NCBI GenBank assembly: GCA_045531435.1
Contig: JAZSDZ010000080.1
Span: 2,807-34,806, forward strand
DNA from: Candidatus Fimenecus sp.
Lineage (GTDB): Bacteria > Bacillota > Clostridia > Oscillospirales > Acutalibacteraceae
DNA length: 32,000 nucleotides
Direction of reading: 5' to 3'
The notes below the pieces were generated by a model, which saw only the letters and a program-made list of their open reading frames with translations, was not told where the DNA came from and did not search any database. Numbering within the stretch: position 1 is the stretch's first letter; every line of letters begins with the position of its first letter. Shown piece after piece: positions 2,717 through 31,540 of the stretch. The translations under genes were made by a program, and so were the position numbers.

Positions 2717-2753
2717 TTAAAAACTAAAATCCCGATATATATCGGGAATATAT

Positions 2754-2829
2754 GATCCACTAGCTCAGTTGGCAGAGCACTTGACTTTTAATCAAGGTGT
2801 CCGGAGTTCGAATCTCCGGTGGATCACCA
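2754..2829 (+). tRNA. tRNA-Lys (anticodon UUU)
   Basis: Hand-folded cloverleaf. Acceptor GATCCAC/GTGGATC, D arm TAGCTCAGTTGGCAGAGCA, anticodon stem CTTGA/TCAAG with loop CTTTTAA (anticodon TTT), T arm GGAGTTCGAATCTCC, discriminator A and an encoded CCA. Confidence 0.93.
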
Positions 2830-9627: not shown

Positions 9628-11206
9628 AATTAAACTTTCTCTTGATGCAAATTTTCAGGATATTGAGGAAGCTGCATCAAAAACATTAAAACTCAATAAA
9701 AAAAGAATTCTGAAAACAGAGATATTCAAACAGAGTGTTGATTGTCGAAAAGGTGAGGTTAATTTTGTTTATACTGTGGATGTTACCATTGATGGTGATG
9801 AGGATAAGGTTTTAGAGAGTCTTAATAACAATCGTGTTATCAAGATTCAGAAATATGAGTATCATATGCCACAATCCAACAGAAAAAGCACTTTGCCACC
9901 TGTTGTTGCGGGATTCGGACCTGCAGGTATGTTTGCAGCGTTGATTCTTGCCCGTAGTGGTCATTGTCCTATTGTGGTTGAACGAGGCAGAGATATTGAT
10001 TCTCGTACAGAAGATGTCAATAAATTCTGGACAAACAAAATTCTTGACGAAACATCAAACATCCAGTATGGTGAAGGTGGTGCAGGAACTTTTTCTGACG
10101 GAAAACTGACAACAGGAATAAAGGACAGTCGTTGCCGTTTTGTTTTTGAGGAATTTGTCCGTCACGGTGCACCAGAGGATATATTGACAAATGCGAAGCC
10201 CCACATTGGTACTGACAAACTCAAGAAAACAGTTAAAAATATCCGTGAGGATATTATATCTCTTGGTGGTACAATCCTTTTTGAAACGCAACTTACAAAT
10301 ATTATTGTTGCGAATAAAGTTATTCACGGTGTAACTGTAAGGGATAAATATGGCAAGGAAAGAGATATTGAAACGGATGCATTAATTTTGTCAATCGGTC
10401 ATTCGGCAAGAGATACTATTGAAATGCTCTACGGCAAAGGTATTAATATGATGCAAAAGCCGTTTTCGGTAGGTGCAAGAATTGAGCATCCGCAAGAATA
10501 CATTAATACAGTTCAGTATGGTGAATTTAAAAATCATCCTAAACTTAAAGCGGCAGATTATAAACTTGCGTGTCATCCACCACACGGCAGAGGCGCATAT
10601 ACATTCTGTATGTGTCCTGGCGGTACGGTTGTGTGTGCATCGTCACATAAAGGTGGAGTTGTTACAAATGGTATGAGCGAATTTGCACGAGATAAGGAAA
10701 ATGCAAATTCTGCTATATTGGTGGGCGTTGAACCGATTGATTTCCCTACAGAACATCCACTTTCAGGATTTGCTTTGCAACAGGAAATCGAAGAAAAAGC
10801 ATTTAAAATGGGTGGCAGTGACTATTCTGCTCCCACAACACTTGTAGGAGATTTTCTTAAATGTGAAAAATCTACTAAACTCGGTTCAGTAAAGCCATCG
10901 TTTACAACGGGTGTTACACTGGGTGACATAAGTGAGGTATTGCCACAAAAGGTTGTTAATACTATGCGCGATGCATTGGTGCAGATGGATAAAAAGCTTA
11001 AGGGATTCGCTATGAATGATGCAGTGCTTACTGCACCTGAAACCAGAAGCTCATCTCCTGTGCGAATTATTCGTGATGAATTCTATCAGACTAATATAAG
11101 AGGACTTTATCCTTGTGGTGAAGGTGCGGGATATGCAGGAGGAATTGTTTCTGCAGGTGTTGACGGTGTAAAATGTGCTGAGGCTGTACTTTCTGATGTT
11201 ATGTAA
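9611..11206 (+). CDS. FAD-dependent dehydrogenase (COG2509-like uncharacterised flavoprotein)
   Basis: MLRISEIKLSLD-type N-terminus, Rossmann motif VVAGFGPAGMFAALILARSG, C-terminal CGEGAGYAGGIVSAGVDG. The ATG at 9611 (GAAAGGA RBS) overlaps the upstream gene by 17 nt. Confidence 0.75.
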   Translation: MLRISEIKLSLDANFQDIEEAASKTLKLNKKRILKTEIFKQSVDCRKGEVNFVYTVDVTIDGDEDKVLESLNNNRVIKIQKYEYHMPQSNRKSTLPPVVAGFGPAGMFAALILARSGHCPIVVERGRDIDSRTEDVNKFWTNKILDETSNIQYGEGGAGTFSDGKLTTGIKDSRCRFVFEEFVRHGAPEDILTNAKPHIGTDKLKKTVKNIREDIISLGGTILFETQLTNIIVANKVIHGVTVRDKYGKERDIETDALILSIGHSARDTIEMLYGKGINMMQKPFSVGARIEHPQEYINTVQYGEFKNHPKLKAADYKLACHPPHGRGAYTFCMCPGGTVVCASSHKGGVVTNGMSEFARDKENANSAILVGVEPIDFPTEHPLSGFALQQEIEEKAFKMGGSDYSAPTTLVGDFLKCEKSTKLGSVKPSFTTGVTLGDISEVLPQKVVNTMRDALVQMDKKLKGFAMNDAVLTAPETRSSSPVRIIRDEFYQTNIRGLYPCGEGAGYAGGIVSAGVDGVKCAEAVLSDVM

Positions 11207-23482: not shown

Positions 23483-24295
23483 TCAACCAAGAGAAAATTC
23501 AAATAAAAACTTAAATATAATAAATAATGGATATACCATGCAGAAAAGAAGTGCCAACCAGCATATAACAGATAGTATTGTTAGCAGTATGTCAATTACC
23601 TTTGAGAGTTTTGGATATTTTTTTCTTAAAAACCTCATGAATAAGAAAAAAGGAAAAGCGATGACTGACGAGATAAAAGCAAAAAATACACAAGCGCCAA
23701 AATGTTCAAGAAAGGCTGAAAGTGTAATTTCGTTAGTTCGTAAACATCTTAAAAATGAAAGTGCCGAAAGGAGAAGAAACAGAGAAAGGATAACACCGAT
23801 TATACCAAATTTTTCTTTAATTTTTTTTAGATTTATAAAATAAAACATTTCTATAATATTGGTATAGTGGTCTATTTCGTTTTTGATAAAATCTTTCATT
23901 ATTTCATTAAAACCTTCACCTCTGCTTTCTCTGGTATTGATAATATGCCAAAAATAATCTTGGGGAAACTCTTTTTCATTTGAATTAGTTTCTTTAATTA
24001 ATTCACATACCTTGATTGCACCATTCAATTCGTCGATTTTCTCATGAAGACGATTAAGATTGTTTGTAATCGCAGTTTGTAAAGGCAATGAGCCATTGAA
24101 AATATTGTGTATATCAGCAATGGAAAGTCCCAGCTTTCGAAAAATAATGATTTTTTTAAGTTGCGTAATATCTTCATTACTGTATTCCCGATATCCATTT
24201 TCTTTTCTTACGGGAGAGACTAAACCCTCATGCTCATAAAATCGAATATTTGCACGTGAAACTTTTAATTCTTTTTCAACTTCTTGAATTTTCAT
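23483..24295 (-). CDS. MerR-family transcriptional regulator with three C-terminal transmembrane helices
   Basis: N-terminal MerR HTH (IQEVEKELKVSRANIRFYEHEGLVSPVRKENGYREYSNEDITQLKKIIIFRKLGLSIADI), a coiled-coil linker, then three hydrophobic helices (IIGVILSLFLLLSALSFL, FGACVFFAFISSVIAFPFFLFM, VIDILLTILSVICWLALLFCMVYPLFIIF). Confidence 0.8.
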   Translation of the reverse strand: MKIQEVEKELKVSRANIRFYEHEGLVSPVRKENGYREYSNEDITQLKKIIIFRKLGLSIADIHNIFNGSLPLQTAITNNLNRLHEKIDELNGAIKVCELIKETNSNEKEFPQDYFWHIINTRESRGEGFNEIMKDFIKNEIDHYTNIIEMFYFINLKKIKEKFGIIGVILSLFLLLSALSFLRCLRTNEITLSAFLEHFGACVFFAFISSVIAFPFFLFMRFLRKKYPKLSKVIDILLTILSVICWLALLFCMVYPLFIIFKFLFEFSLG

Positions 24296-27969: not shown

Positions 27970-29427
27970 TTATTTCTCTATATCATATTTCTTTGACATT
28001 TTGCTCAATGCTTCTTCTCTTGTGATTTTGCCTGTATTACAGTCAATCATTAATTGAACATCCTTGTCCTTCAAATCATAGAAAAGCCATGTGATAAATG
28101 CTAAAAGACCACCGATTGCAGGAATAAGCGTATAGATTATCCAAAGTATATTAAGTGCGTGAGGTGTCTGTGTAACTCCACTCTGTTCCAATTCCTGGAA
28201 TGAGCCCACCTCAACCACTTTCCAGCCTACTGAATCAAGACCGAGAATGAAAAGCCCCAAGGCACCTGAAATTGAGCTTGTAAGCTTTGCCATAAATGTC
28301 TGAACAGCAAATGTGATACCTTTTGCTTCAGTATTTGTTTTGAATCGTCCATATTCAGCACAGTCAGGTGTGAACATACACATTTCAAGGCTGACAATTG
28401 CCAGAGGAACTGAACGGAGCGTAAAGAGAATTATGTAAACAACAGCATTACCATAGCCCAAAAGCCAGATAATAACGCTGAGTATTACATAGAGCAATAA
28501 GCAAATCTGATTTACCTTCATCTTGTCATATTTACGGATAATTTTCGGTAACAGTAATGAAACGACAAGCTGTGGAATTGTGCCGATTGCACCGACAAGC
28601 AAGGAGAATAACGCACTGTCAAAGAGGTAATATGAAACATAAAGAGTGAATGCGTTACCAATGTTGAGTGCAGAATAGAAGAAAACACCAAGATTATATA
28701 CAAGCAGATATTTGTTTCTGATAAGATATGAAAACATTCTTTTGATTGTAAATGTTTCTTCGCTTTCAGCGTGATAGCGTTCTTTAAGTCTGAATGAAGC
28801 AGGTGTCATTAAAGCGAATGCAATTACACAGATGATAATTGAGATTGTGCCGTAATTCATGCCAACCTCTTCGCTGATAAGAACAGTTGTAAGTGCAGAT
28901 GTAATACCAACCCCTGCATATGTAGTAATACTTTTGTATGACTGAATAGTGTTTCTCTCGTCAATACTCTGACTCATAGATGTAAGAATACCGAAAATAG
29001 GAACATCGCATAAGGTGTAAGCAGTATCCCATAATATGTAGGCAACGGCAAACCACACCAATTTAACTGTTTCAGATGAGTTGGACGGAATAACAAAGGT
29101 CAGTATTGTTGCAAGAGGAATGAGTATGGTGGAAATGCGTATCCAAGGCAGGTATTTCTTTCCACTCTTGAACTTAATCAAATCAAATATCGCACCAAAC
29201 AAAGTATCGTTTACAGCATCCCACACTTTTACAATAAGTATAATTGTTGCTGATTTGATAGGGTTAATGCCTAAAAACAAAAGATAGGTTGTAAGACATA
29301 CATTGAAAAGTGTGTAAATCATATTCTGACCGGCAAAATATGAATAATAGCTTGCTCTCTCAATGGGTTCAGTTGACCAACCGCCTTTGGTCACAAAAAG
29401 ATTTTTTGCTTTTGATGTAAGGTTCAT
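27970..29427 (-). CDS. GPH-family (glycoside-pentoside-hexuronide:cation) sugar symporter
   Basis: 12-TM MFS-like protein with the family N-terminal motif VKVWDAVNDTLFGAIFD. The start is set at MNLTSK (29427), 7 nt after AAGGAG; the ORF-track Met at 29433 is only 1 nt from the RBS. Confidence 0.85.
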   Translation of the reverse strand: MNLTSKAKNLFVTKGGWSTEPIERASYYSYFAGQNMIYTLFNVCLTTYLLFLGINPIKSATIILIVKVWDAVNDTLFGAIFDLIKFKSGKKYLPWIRISTILIPLATILTFVIPSNSSETVKLVWFAVAYILWDTAYTLCDVPIFGILTSMSQSIDERNTIQSYKSITTYAGVGITSALTTVLISEEVGMNYGTISIIICVIAFALMTPASFRLKERYHAESEETFTIKRMFSYLIRNKYLLVYNLGVFFYSALNIGNAFTLYVSYYLFDSALFSLLVGAIGTIPQLVVSLLLPKIIRKYDKMKVNQICLLLYVILSVIIWLLGYGNAVVYIILFTLRSVPLAIVSLEMCMFTPDCAEYGRFKTNTEAKGITFAVQTFMAKLTSSISGALGLFILGLDSVGWKVVEVGSFQELEQSGVTQTPHALNILWIIYTLIPAIGGLLAFITWLFYDLKDKDVQLMIDCNTGKITREEALSKMSKKYDIEK

Positions 29428-29444
29428 ATACATTCTCCTTATTC

Positions 29445-29502
29445 TGATAATTCACGTGCCGTTAGGCACATATCGCAAATCACGACGGTGATTTATATCG
29501 CT
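29445..29502 (-). repeat. Downstream copy of the direct repeat flanking the orphan gene (two hairpin+ATATCGC units)
   Basis: 29452-29475 is identical (24/24) to 30300-30323, and 29474-29502 matches 30358-30386 at 27/29. It contains the hairpins GTGCC-gtta-GGCAC and AAATCAC-gacg-GTGATTT, each followed by ATATCGC. Confidence 0.85.
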
Positions 29503-30193
29503 ATAATTTTAGTGACTTTTGCCACTCATCTATTCTATGATTTCTTTTATTTATGAACTCTATTGTATTATTCTTATATTTTTCGTATTCATCTTTTGTT
29601 TTAGGTAATGGATTATATGCAAAATTATCAAATGGATGTAAAAATTTTATACTTGTATAATCATCTGTGACGAGGTCTTGAAAAAAGAAAAAGTCAACAT
29701 AACCTTTAAAATTACAAAACAAATCAAAAAAATCTTTATAACCTAATAAACAATCAGTCATTGGACTTTCTATATTTAGATAGTATCGACGGATACACTC
29801 AAGAGTCAAATCAATTCTATCATTTATTCTGTGATTTAAACCTCGTTCACCGTTTATCGTCTTTTTACCTTCTATCTTATTACATGGAAAAATCGTCATT
29901 CCACCAATTGTATATGACAATTTGACGAACTCATTTATTTCCTTATCAGGTATTTGTTTGATTATTTCTTGCGTTCTTTTCCACTTGCAATAAGTATGTA
30001 TAATGGAATCACTAGAAAAAACAAAACAACCAGCATCAGAAAAATTTTTCAAGTCTTCATCTAAGTTCAATTTTTGACCATTTGGTAATACCTTACTCCA
30101 TAAATATCGGTGATATTTCTTTAGAGTAGCACTATGTGCATCCGGGTCTTTTCCAAAGGAATCGTTACGAAAGTCATATGTAATATCTATCAT
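29501..30193 (-). CDS. Orphan hypothetical protein (230 aa), AT-rich
   Basis: Intact ORF with GAGG 5 nt upstream of the ATG. Conserved-looking segments are KDPDAHSATLKKYHRYLWSKVLPNG and TINGERGLNHRINDRIDLTLECIRRYY, but I can assign no family. No signal peptide or TM helix. Confidence 0.6.
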   Translation of the reverse strand: MIDITYDFRNDSFGKDPDAHSATLKKYHRYLWSKVLPNGQKLNLDEDLKNFSDAGCFVFSSDSIIHTYCKWKRTQEIIKQIPDKEINEFVKLSYTIGGMTIFPCNKIEGKKTINGERGLNHRINDRIDLTLECIRRYYLNIESPMTDCLLGYKDFFDLFCNFKGYVDFFFFQDLVTDDYTSIKFLHPFDNFAYNPLPKTKDEYEKYKNNTIEFINKRNHRIDEWQKSLKL

Positions 30194-30210: not shown

Positions 30211-30386
30211 TATTTTAACGATATACTCGCTTACGCTCGTGCGATATAATCTCATTCGATTGCGATATTTTTATTGTCACAAAAACGATATGATATAAAT
30301 CACGTGCCGTTAGGCACATATCGTGTCGCAAGACATATCGCGTACCTCTGTATATATCGCAATTCACGACAGTGATTTATATCGCT
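30211..30386. repeat. Motif array: 4x CGATAT then 4x ATATCG (plus strand), the latter each preceded by a tetraloop mini-hairpin; includes the upstream copy of the direct repeat (30291-30386)
   Basis: CGATAT at 30219, 30242, 30263 and 30286. ATATCG at 30318, 30335, 30354 and 30379. Hairpins are GTGCC-gtta-GGCAC (30304-30317), TGTC-gcaa-GACA (30324-30335), a weak GTAC-ctct-GTAT (30342-30353) and TCAC-gaca-GTGA (30364-30375). A CACGTG palindrome at 30301-30306 sits near the orientation switch. Confidence 0.85.
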
Positions 30387-31540
30387 GAATGTGTTTGCAC
30401 TAAAAGTGCAACACATTCTACATGGTCCGTATGTGGAAACATATCCACAGGCTGAATTTTCTTTACTTTATATCCGTTTTTGGAAAGATACATCAAATCT
30501 CTTGCAAGGGTTTCAGGATTACAGCTTACATAAACAACCTTTTTCGGACTGAGCTTAATAAGAGAAGACAAAAACGGAATGTCACTTCCGGCACGGGCTG
30601 GGTCCATAATAACTGCATCAATCTGTTCGTTGTTATTTGCTAAATCAACCATAAATTTTCCTGCATCGGCTGCGAAAAACTTAATATTTTCTATGCCGTT
30701 GAGTTTTGCATTTTCCTTTGCATCCTTTACGGCATCTTTATTTATTTCAACACCGAGAACACTTTTCACATTCTTACTTGCAATAAGACCGATTGTACCT
30801 GTGCCACAATAAGCATCGATAATTCTTTCACTGCCATCAAAATCAGCATATTCAAGTGCTTTGTTGTAAAGAATTTCTGTCTGCACAGGGTTAATCTGAT
30901 AAAAAGCCTTTGGTGAAATACGGAATTTAAGTCCACAAAGCTCCTCAGTGATTTTTCCGTCACCATAAAGCACTTCACTTTTATCACCAAGCACCATACT
31001 TGTAAATTTATTGTTTACATTCTGCACAATTGTAGTAATTTCAGGATGTCTGCCAAGAAGTGCATTGACAAAAGAACGTTTTGACGGAAACTGTGGTGTT
31101 GAAGTCACAAGAACTACCATAACCTCACCACTTTTAAAGCCAGTTTTAACTAAAACATGTCTTAAAAAGCCTTGTCTTGTGTTTTCATCATAAGGCTTCA
31201 GTTTAAAGCTCTTCATCAGTTTTTTTACTGTATTTGCAATTTCATCAGCTTTTGTGTCTGTCAGCATACAACGTTCAATATCAACAATTTTATGAGTTGA
31301 TGACTGATAAACACCTGTGACAGTTTGTCCGTTACGACCGCGACCAAATGCGTACTGTGCTTTGTTTCGGTAATTATATGGTTTTTCCATTCCGATAATT
31401 TCTTCAATATGACAAAACCTGCCTAAAAGTCTGATAACTTTAACTTGTTTATGTCGTAACTGTTCTTCATATGAAAGATTTAATAACTGACATCCACCAC
31501 ACTTTTTTGCATGTGGACAAATTTGTTTTGATTTATTCAT
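30377..31540 (-). CDS. TrmA/RlmC/RlmD-family RNA (uracil-5)-methyltransferase with an N-terminal Fe-S cysteine cluster and no TRAM domain
   Basis: CPHAKKCGGCQ at the N-terminus, SAM motif DAYCGTGTIGL, IMDPARAG, catalytic Cys context YVSCNPETLARD, and a C-terminal HVECVALL. Confidence 0.85.
   Translation of the reverse strand: MNKSKQICPHAKKCGGCQLLNLSYEEQLRHKQVKVIRLLGRFCHIEEIIGMEKPYNYRNKAQYAFGRGRNGQTVTGVYQSSTHKIVDIERCMLTDTKADEIANTVKKLMKSFKLKPYDENTRQGFLRHVLVKTGFKSGEVMVVLVTSTPQFPSKRSFVNALLGRHPEITTIVQNVNNKFTSMVLGDKSEVLYGDGKITEELCGLKFRISPKAFYQINPVQTEILYNKALEYADFDGSERIIDAYCGTGTIGLIASKNVKSVLGVEINKDAVKDAKENAKLNGIENIKFFAADAGKFMVDLANNNEQIDAVIMDPARAGSDIPFLSSLIKLSPKKVVYVSCNPETLARDLMYLSKNGYKVKKIQPVDMFPHTDHVECVALLVQTHSAI

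Follow-up and report, generated by a model that had tools for sequence, protein, structure and literature searches.

The hexamer array at the end of a methyltransferase gene in the stretch of DNA analysed here (the window; 32,000 nt from Candidatus Fimenecus sp.) belongs, as a diverged copy, to a structured intergenic repeat family that is dispersed through gut Clostridia and their phages. Its best explanation is a CGAUAU subclass of the Gut-1 motif (RF01706), related to the orphan Gut-1 RNA, and we further find that Gut-1-like ladders are strongly associated with genes of the 23S rRNA intervening-sequence protein family (IVP; PF05635). Combined into one account, the element would be a transcribed Gut-1-type structure that folds as a ladder and has the IVP as a candidate cognate partner; we see this overall account as evenly balanced.

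A hexamer scan of the window places plus-strand CGATAT at 30219, 30242, 30263 and 30286 (a spacing of 21-23 bp) and plus-strand ATATCG at 30318, 30335, 30354 and 30379, with two further ATATCG at 29470 and 29495 in a second copy about 880 nt off. An earlier description made from the letters alone (hereafter the sequence-only reading) had given these coordinates and counts exactly. Over the whole window the hexamer occurs 25 times against an expected 11.5 ± 3.4, a total reached in none of 100 shuffles. The claim that eight copies in 170 nt lie far above chance is also borne out, with about 0.06 matches expected per 170 nt and P(≥8) of about 1e-14 by Poisson arithmetic on the background rate of the window. 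Mini-hairpins with the described loops (gtta, gcaa, ctct, gaca, gacg) are found in the sequence, and the second copy (29447-29503) corresponds to the upstream right half minus exactly 36 nt, the two-unit difference that had been noticed (direct repeats D1/D2). As the flanking genes all lie on the minus strand, the units read CGAUAU and then hairpin in the sense of transcription. Two details held only in part. The CACGTG palindrome at 30301-30306 is present because hairpin 4 ends directly against the centre arm GTGATTT, but it is a chance product of this copy rather than a family-conserved landmark of the orientation switch. Similarly, the coupling of hairpins to right-hand hexamers had been read from the window copy, which is AT-rich and has weak or degenerate left-hand hairpins; in relatives the left-hand hexamers are separated by hairpins as well.

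Family membership was established with a specific scan pattern, CGATATAAAT-N12-17-CGATAT-N8-16-CGATAT, for which about three chance matches are expected. In GTDB genomes this pattern gave at least 120 matches, nearly all from gut Clostridia MAGs among the matches listed (labelled Clostridia, Oscillospiraceae, Acutalibacteraceae, Faecousia and Ruminococcus), and IMG/VR added seven further stretches. A generic three-hexamer scan of IMG/VR returned mostly tandem-repeat noise among the matches listed, yet also the first true relatives, on phage contigs. The array is therefore no lineage-specific accident, an outcome that the sequence-only reading had allowed for: it is found in related loci and recurs widely. 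The consensus begins with a long variable hairpin, CAG or CAT, CGATAT and AAATYCC-loop-GGRATTT, and continues with two to three more heptamer-plus-hairpin units, a short linker, GGRATTTATATC and four ATATCG with hairpins. Its modal form has 4+4 heptamers (77/144 copies among the matches listed), while a short form consists of the CGATAT units alone (the L half) and leads directly into a ribosome-binding site. A covariance model of the L half (R1), built from 69 copies with the window sequences left out, matches the long window copy at 30305-30387(-) with 68.5 bits (E 1.7e-14) and the short one at 29413-29503(-) with 39.8 bits (E ~1e-7). R1 has just one other match in the window, of 18.5 bits at 10168-10264; it is a lone hairpin within a coding region, and we discounted it as chance.

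In the window, the element runs on the minus strand and begins with a long hairpin of 13-14 bp (30387-30418), which joins the first heptamer through CAG. The 5' arm of this hairpin is conserved C-terminal coding sequence of the methyltransferase (E-C-V-A-L). Equivalent long hairpins stand ahead of nearly all family members, and in 84 of about 139 copies the first heptamer comes after CAG or CAT. The long-form L half (30304-30386, minus strand) comprises four (G/A)CGATAT heptamers, with hexamers at 30379-84, 30354-59, 30335-40 and 30318-23, each bearing a 3' hairpin (30361-78, 30341-53, 30324-34 and 30304-17, respectively). It aligns over its full length with 47 relatives, and the TAA stop codon of the methyltransferase lies inside CGATATAA of the first unit. 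There follows, on the same strand, the centre arm GTGATTTATATC (30292-30303; inverted repeat I11), which is perfectly complementary over 12 nt to GATATAAATCAC in unit 1 (30372-30383). The R half (30219-30291, minus strand) contains four sense-strand ATATCG with hairpins between them, including the tandem-G.A hairpin ACGAGC-GTAA-GCGAGT (30225-30240). R1 matches this half on the opposite strand with 32.2 bits, and the R half thus resembles an inverted L half.

The short form (29447-29503, minus strand) combines L units 1 and 4 with a truncated centre arm. The stop codon of the DUF6994 gene lies inside its first CGATATAA, and the copy ends 36 nt ahead of the ATG of a transporter gene, just upstream of the ribosome-binding site. 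Scans of the region for sigma-70 promoters and terminators stayed at background level, and the hairpins called as terminators there were rejected as hairpins of the element itself. A CGATATATATCG palindrome at 2733-2744 is unrelated and belongs to a terminator-like hairpin before tRNA-Lys; the palindrome CCCGATATATATCGGG at that place (window 2731-2829) stands just ahead of the tRNA-Lys(UUU) gene (2754-2829), with both hexamers there by chance.

The order of transcription is methyltransferase, long array, DUF6994, short array, MFS_2/GPH transporter, and then a GH35 beta-galactosidase and others. The methyltransferase gene (30377-31540, minus strand; RNA uracil-5-methyltransferase family, PF05958) runs into the element with its 3' end. 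The DUF6994 gene (29501-30193, minus strand; 230 aa; PF22507, E 4e-85) lies between the two copies, and the transporter gene (27970-29433, minus strand; PF13347) directly follows the short form. The sequence-only reading had seen no regulator gene; there is in fact a MerR-family gene (23483-24295) at the far end of the glycosidase cluster, 5 kb from the array, and nothing links it to the array. It had also spoken of an orphan cassette, but DUF6994 is not a recent orphan insertion: homologues with 74-79% identity occupy the same methyltransferase-DUF6994-transporter synteny in relatives. The transporter synteny is kept in L001-L009; CGATAT-hairpin arrays precede the transporter in relatives too, with stems that differ from those of the window and with four-unit versions at the short-form site, and some syntenic relatives retain a large array 3' of the methyltransferase. 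Relative L001 reads methyltransferase, L-R, IVP, one R unit, DUF6994, L' and transporter. The window locus (methyltransferase, L-R, DUF6994, two-unit L, transporter) has no IVP gene, which it has lost or never carried.

DUF6994 has a predicted HNH-like fold with an atypical active site (PMC11701544). An exact-protein lookup of the window DUF6994 gave no match, nor did PADLOC for DUF6994, IVP or two small neighbouring ORFs. We note that the last DUF6994 codons (29503-29531) resemble a degenerate unit, with 66% identity to 29447-29475 (repeat family D1); either the decay of a former unit or chance could account for this. The methyltransferase family also lies upstream of the element in 12 other loci, with 38-42% identity. 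The proteins of related loci have 448-480 aa, with a TRAM region of some 70 aa at the N terminus; the window protein, of 387 aa, lacks this region. A split gene was considered and rejected, since the protein is merely without those N-terminal 70 residues and is about 40% identical to the L004 protein. At about 40% identity to the related-locus proteins, it may be a paralogue rather than a strict orthologue.

Comparison of copies reveals a predicted fold in which pairing, rather than stem sequence, is kept. The spacers between heptamers are near-perfect palindromes with 45-63 distinct sequences per position (65 elements), and their mean stems measure 3.6-6.6 bp, against 1.8-2.9 bp in shuffles. 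Across 48 aligned copies the heptamers are invariant, while hairpin sequences differ in almost every copy. The base before the L hexamer covaries by element with the base after the R hexamer (G with C, T with A), and in each heptamer class seen the R sequence reverse-complements the L sequence exactly. In the RNAalifold prediction, L heptamers 1-4 are joined to R heptamers 4-1 and the seven hairpins stand out as side arms, giving a chain of four-way junctions; 27 pairs of this ladder show double changes. For the window copy, the ladder has the lowest energy of all folds (-51.2 kcal/mol), and averaged over copies it lies within 2.5 kcal/mol of the optimum (shuffle z ~-6). From these models we infer that the L and R halves zip into a ladder, with the caveat that the seventh-base match is not always kept (A.C in 4/48 at one pair). 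The ladder pairing rests on invariant heptamers and class-level covariation, and as such it is indistinguishable from inverted sites bound by one protein. Unit 1 and the centre arm are perfectly complementary in 45/65 copies, with eight covarying triplet types. A fold closed by this 12-nt helix was not adopted, being about 10 kcal/mol worse than the ladder on average. The conserved complement is thus not used in the ladder and is unexplained by that model; a conformational switch or alternative conformation is one possibility.

Several observations bear on the strand that folds. Among the matches listed, the upstream ORF is co-oriented with the element in 95 cases against 26, tandem gene contexts favour the sense orientation by 31 to 8, and divergent contexts are rare. 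The tandem-G.A hairpin occurs in 35/83 R halves in sense and never in antisense or in L halves; its G.A/A.G mismatches are conserved and its flanking pairs covary. Hairpin 4 has 16 G.U against 2 A.C pairs and is the sole clearly biased hairpin, with alignment totals of 28 versus 18 and, under strict stem rules, 9 versus 2 from few events. Where the element follows the methyltransferase gene, the coding 5' arm of the upstream hairpin is matched in each genome by a complementary 3' arm. The sense bias, the tandem-G.A hairpin, the G.U pairs of hairpin 4 and the complement of the coding arm therefore favour a single-stranded fold of the sense strand, most simply as RNA. Judged by position and orientation, the element is probably a transcribed sense-strand fold. 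Intrinsic terminators just 3' of the R half show no strand preference (18 sense versus 23 antisense of 82), the low overall number of G.U pairs fits DNA-level palindromes as well as RNA, and part of the orientation bias could stem from the direction of replication instead of transcription. Of the interpretations put forward in the sequence-only reading, a reiterated RNA element in a 5' leader is largely borne out in kind, through the Gut-1-like architecture, the sense orientation and the strand-specific tandem-G.A hairpin; as to leader position, it is the short copy that lies ahead of the transporter start codon.

Weinberg et al. described Gut-1 in 2010 as a likely RNA, "not cis-regulatory", known from human gut sequence only and with no function given (PMC2864571); the paper mentions neither an R half nor a neighbouring gene, and its seed alignment holds GUGAAAU and GUGAUAU members (PMC2864571 supplement). 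Our literature search on Gut-1 function and on this repeat found nothing beyond that description. Rfam searches of the window and the related loci gave Gut-1 as the only relevant match and no rRNA match. The window scores 25.9 bits (E 0.018) at 29444-29514 and 20.1 bits at 30292-30387, and relatives score 32-49.7 bits, so that none attains the gathering score of 50. One of the same MAGs also holds a GUGAAGU-type element, which likewise reaches only 45.8 bits and shows how narrow the curated threshold is. In the cmscan alignments CGAUAU falls on the UGAAAU positions of the model and the hairpins fall on its stems. The element thus presents four N-N-G-A-(A/U)-A-U heptamers with three covarying hairpins between them, and it shares with Gut-1 the alternation of four conserved heptamers with three to four covarying short hairpins behind a long hairpin. 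Both groups come from gut-associated uncultured Clostridia, and the flanks of the Gut-1 seed also hold a centre complement and an inverse half: GUGAUAU three times, then GGCGAAUAUA, then AUAUCAC four times. This same layout is seen in L282, an IVP-linked locus to which one Gut-1 seed locus is identical. The two differ at two heptamer positions (GUGAAAU/GUGAUAU in Gut-1, G/U-CGAUAU in the family of the window) and in extent, since the Rfam model spans the L half only while the CGATAT element comprises L and R.

The link to IVP genes emerged from the gene neighbourhoods. In 20 long forms among the matches listed, an IVP gene lies 16-40 nt downstream. It encodes a 115-aa PF05635 protein annotated as a "23S rRNA IVS protein", an Avd-like four-helix bundle whose closest homologue of solved structure, 2RLD, is an entry with five chains. 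Only about eight of these 20 also have the methyltransferase upstream, several of the 20 are followed by a second L array, and one ladder with another heptamer in the same MAG loci adjoins an IVP paralogue. Starting from the protein instead, we find that 68 of 80 metagenomic IVP loci have a heptamer array in the 330 nt upstream, counted as such when one hexamer is repeated there, with spacing, three or more times; of the controls, 10 out of 140 distal windows and 9 out of 750 shuffles had one. These arrays are true ladders, of the form L-R-IVP-L' or R-IVP-L', and their heptamer class tracks the IVP clade in about nine classes (GTGAAAT, ATGAAAT, GTGATAT, GAGATAT, GCTAAAT, GTGAAGT, TGATATT, TCGAAT and G-/T-CGATAT). 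PF05635 is an uncharacterised, Avd-like family that is also found scattered into cas loci, and insertion into unrelated loci is typical of it (PMC3936711, PMC10053308). An IVP gene is missing near most copies of the element, among them those of the window and every phage copy, and the correlation between IVP and heptamer could be simple co-inheritance of neighbouring sequences. We tentatively propose, at somewhat less than even confidence, that a large clade of Avd-like IVS proteins has Gut-1-type ladders as its cognate nucleic-acid partners, each IVP lineage having its own 7-base code repeated about eight times in the neighbouring element and in IVP-less satellite copies in the genome and in phages.

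The flanking genes of the copies are mostly unrelated to each other, and the only recurrent neighbours among the matches listed are IVP and the methyltransferase. Phage contig L251 holds three near-identical copies, upstream hairpin included, 3' of its terminase, portal and capsid genes and all in sense with the late operon; in the related phages L073 and L252 copies sit at other gene junctions, and two copies in L169 are about 90% alike. Copies being alike within genomes and phages and yet at different junctions, the element has evidently been gained, lost and copied within genomes. De novo scanning of the same 8-kb MAG loci as the CGATAT copies found ladders with GTGAAGT, GCTAAAT and AAATCA, and one genome can therefore hold several classes; ladders with other heptamers lie at L180 3108-3258, L153 3380-3552, L137 4793-4971 and 6812-7027, and L164 3420-3564.

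Variant forms were also observed. A conserved GC-rich insert of about 130-150 nt, GGGAGCGATGGGAGCGC...GAGCGAGTGGCAGCGGTCGGC...CCGCAACAGGA, separates hairpin 4 from the centre arm in L134 (4765-5000), L151 (1143-1420, 1531-1800) and L085/L252 (around the L-R centre); different MAGs and a phage contig have it in common, and it resembles a nested element or an optional domain. Unit numbers vary, with six L units and an exact two-unit duplication in L190 (7225-7400), nine GCTAAAT units 3' of the IVP gene in L321 (1812-2060) and five units on each side in L258 (835-940). In phage L073 (1428-1620), between terminase and portal, the order is reversed, ATATCG units preceding CGATAT, and the AAATYCC first unit is missing. 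On the viral contig L047 (5313-6026; also L253), the element lies 4 nt 3' of a rolling-circle-type replication gene (PF23343 REP_ORF2-G2P).

Such dispersal would also suit a selfish DNA repeat of the MITE or REP-BIME kind, which spreads as folded single-stranded DNA or by way of an enzyme recognising heptamer and hairpin, has no dedicated host function and affects RNA only as a by-product. We regard this as unlikely, if still worth serious attention. Copies are about 90-100% alike within a genome or phage, upstream hairpin included (L169, L251), and different between genomes; related phages carry them at different gene junctions; gene 3' ends are preferred and divergent promoter regions avoided; the stems are almost perfectly Watson-Crick with few G.U; and a gene flanked by its own repeat class recalls RAYT-REP. 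However, the element has no transposase, HUH or recombinase gene linked to it, IVP is without a known catalytic motif, and no target-site duplications are seen in the copies. The architecture, the 4+4 count and the pairing are moreover conserved across Clostridia families and syntenic loci, and this conservation, together with compensatory changes opposite a coding arm, therefore argues for selection on the fold rather than mere recent copying. The same gene orders can be read in another way, along the lines of the recombination or mobilisation site that was among the candidates of the sequence-only reading, as sites of site-specific recombination or cassette capture at which L arrays would be attachment sites and cargo (IVP, DUF6994) would lie between direct L repeats, much as in integrons or rRNA IVS. 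An L-R-cargo-L order does occur in L188, L211, L225, L232, L001 and the window, with a few bases before L duplicated too; L258 and L321 show R-IVP-L' with inverted arrays, and the gene content 3' of the methyltransferase-linked copy varies among genomes. We nevertheless consider a capture site improbable, as no recombinase gene lies nearby, 76 of the 98 long forms among the matches listed are without cargo, DUF6994 is widespread without such arrays and stably syntenic here, and the downstream genes look like ordinary chromosomal ones, unlike cassettes.

The explanation that fits the data worst, and that we hold to be very improbable, is a double-stranded operator or iteron array, bound either by a regulator of the sugar operon, as the sequence-only reading had suggested, or by IVP as a DNA-binding autoregulator. 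Invariant heptamers reiterated in both orientations, the 21-23-bp spacing of the left-hand copies in the window and the position immediately upstream of IVP in many loci are what one would look for in such an array. However, operators would be restricted to an operon, helically phased and conserved as sites, and here the same element neighbours over 100 unrelated genes and occurs in structural operons of phages (terminase, portal, capsid), with spacings that vary from 16 to 25 nt. Between the hexamers it is hairpin pairing that is selected, without sequence conservation, which a duplex-binding protein does not need; the tandem-G.A hairpin is strand-specific; the usual site is after genes rather than in promoter regions; and no regulator of the window is linked to the array, the MerR-family gene being distant.

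In sum, we favour a structural element of the Gut-1 type that would be transcribed in sense along with the upstream gene. In the single strand, L heptamers would pair with R heptamers and the hairpins project sideways, forming a rod of stacked four-way junctions; in the L-only short form, the heptamers would stay unpaired just ahead of the ribosome-binding site. The heptamers are identical within an element and different between lineages, and therefore suggest a lineage-specific partner, for which the Avd-like four-helix-bundle IVP (PF05635), encoded directly 3' of many copies, is the candidate. The local effect is likely structural, an insulation, processing or stabilisation of adjoining cistrons, with no sugar-specific regulation.

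The Gut-1 motif, an orphan since 2010 as to host, function and partner, can now be placed in Oscillospiraceae, Acutalibacteraceae, Faecousia, Ruminococcus and phages, and it makes up just one half of an element with two parts, for which a fold as a chain of four-way junctions is predicted. The family has at least nine heptamer classes; new are the statistical tie of its ladders to IVP genes and the tracking of class by clade. The PF05635 "IVS proteins" are abundant and related to the DGR accessory protein Avd, with no known function, and whether IVP tells cognate from non-cognate heptamer arrays is now a concrete question for binding experiments. Should the partnership be true, it would represent a module of protein and structured repeat not recognised before, with a RAYT/REP-like logic and a non-enzymatic pentameric binder, and it would open a first way to the function of both orphans, the Gut-1 RNA motif as well as the 23S rRNA IVS protein family. 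For annotation, we caution that such arrays are not to be read as operators of a nearby operon.

Among known systems, integron attC sites are likewise structure-defined and sequence-variable folded sites with short conserved cores and small cargo genes. They are single imperfect hairpins with R''/R' cores, whereas the present element is a multi-unit array without such cores or an integrase gene; no attC core sites are visible in the sequences read, and no integrase is found in the annotated part of the window. REP and BIME elements are similar in their dispersed palindromic units, in the short motif beside each hairpin and in their alternating clusters at gene 3' ends, and the REP/RAYT pair also in that the repeat class matches a neighbouring gene flanked by its repeats. 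REP stems are conserved in sequence within a genome, and the linked RAYT is an HUH/Y1 transposase. Here, by contrast, the heptamer alone is conserved, the stems of adjacent units differ and the linked gene encodes a 115-aa four-helix bundle; no RAYT is among the recurrent neighbours. Intervening sequences of 23S rRNA that carry an IVP ORF are found in Leptospira and Coxiella. They share with our loci the PF05635 family and an ORF flanked by complementary sequences (R-IVP-L' here), which could pair around it. The elements differ in that the window and all loci examined are protein-gene contexts, intergenic or in mRNA, rather than the inside of a 23S rRNA helix, that heptamer-hairpin arrays take the place of simple inverted repeats and that most copies are without an ORF. 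Finally, sponge RNAs of the CsrB/RsmZ type also carry many short motifs between or on hairpins. In the present element half of the motifs are reverse complements able to pair, the copies lie within mRNAs rather than in free-standing sRNA genes, and protein binding is putative; an arrangement of this kind would suit a multimeric binder.
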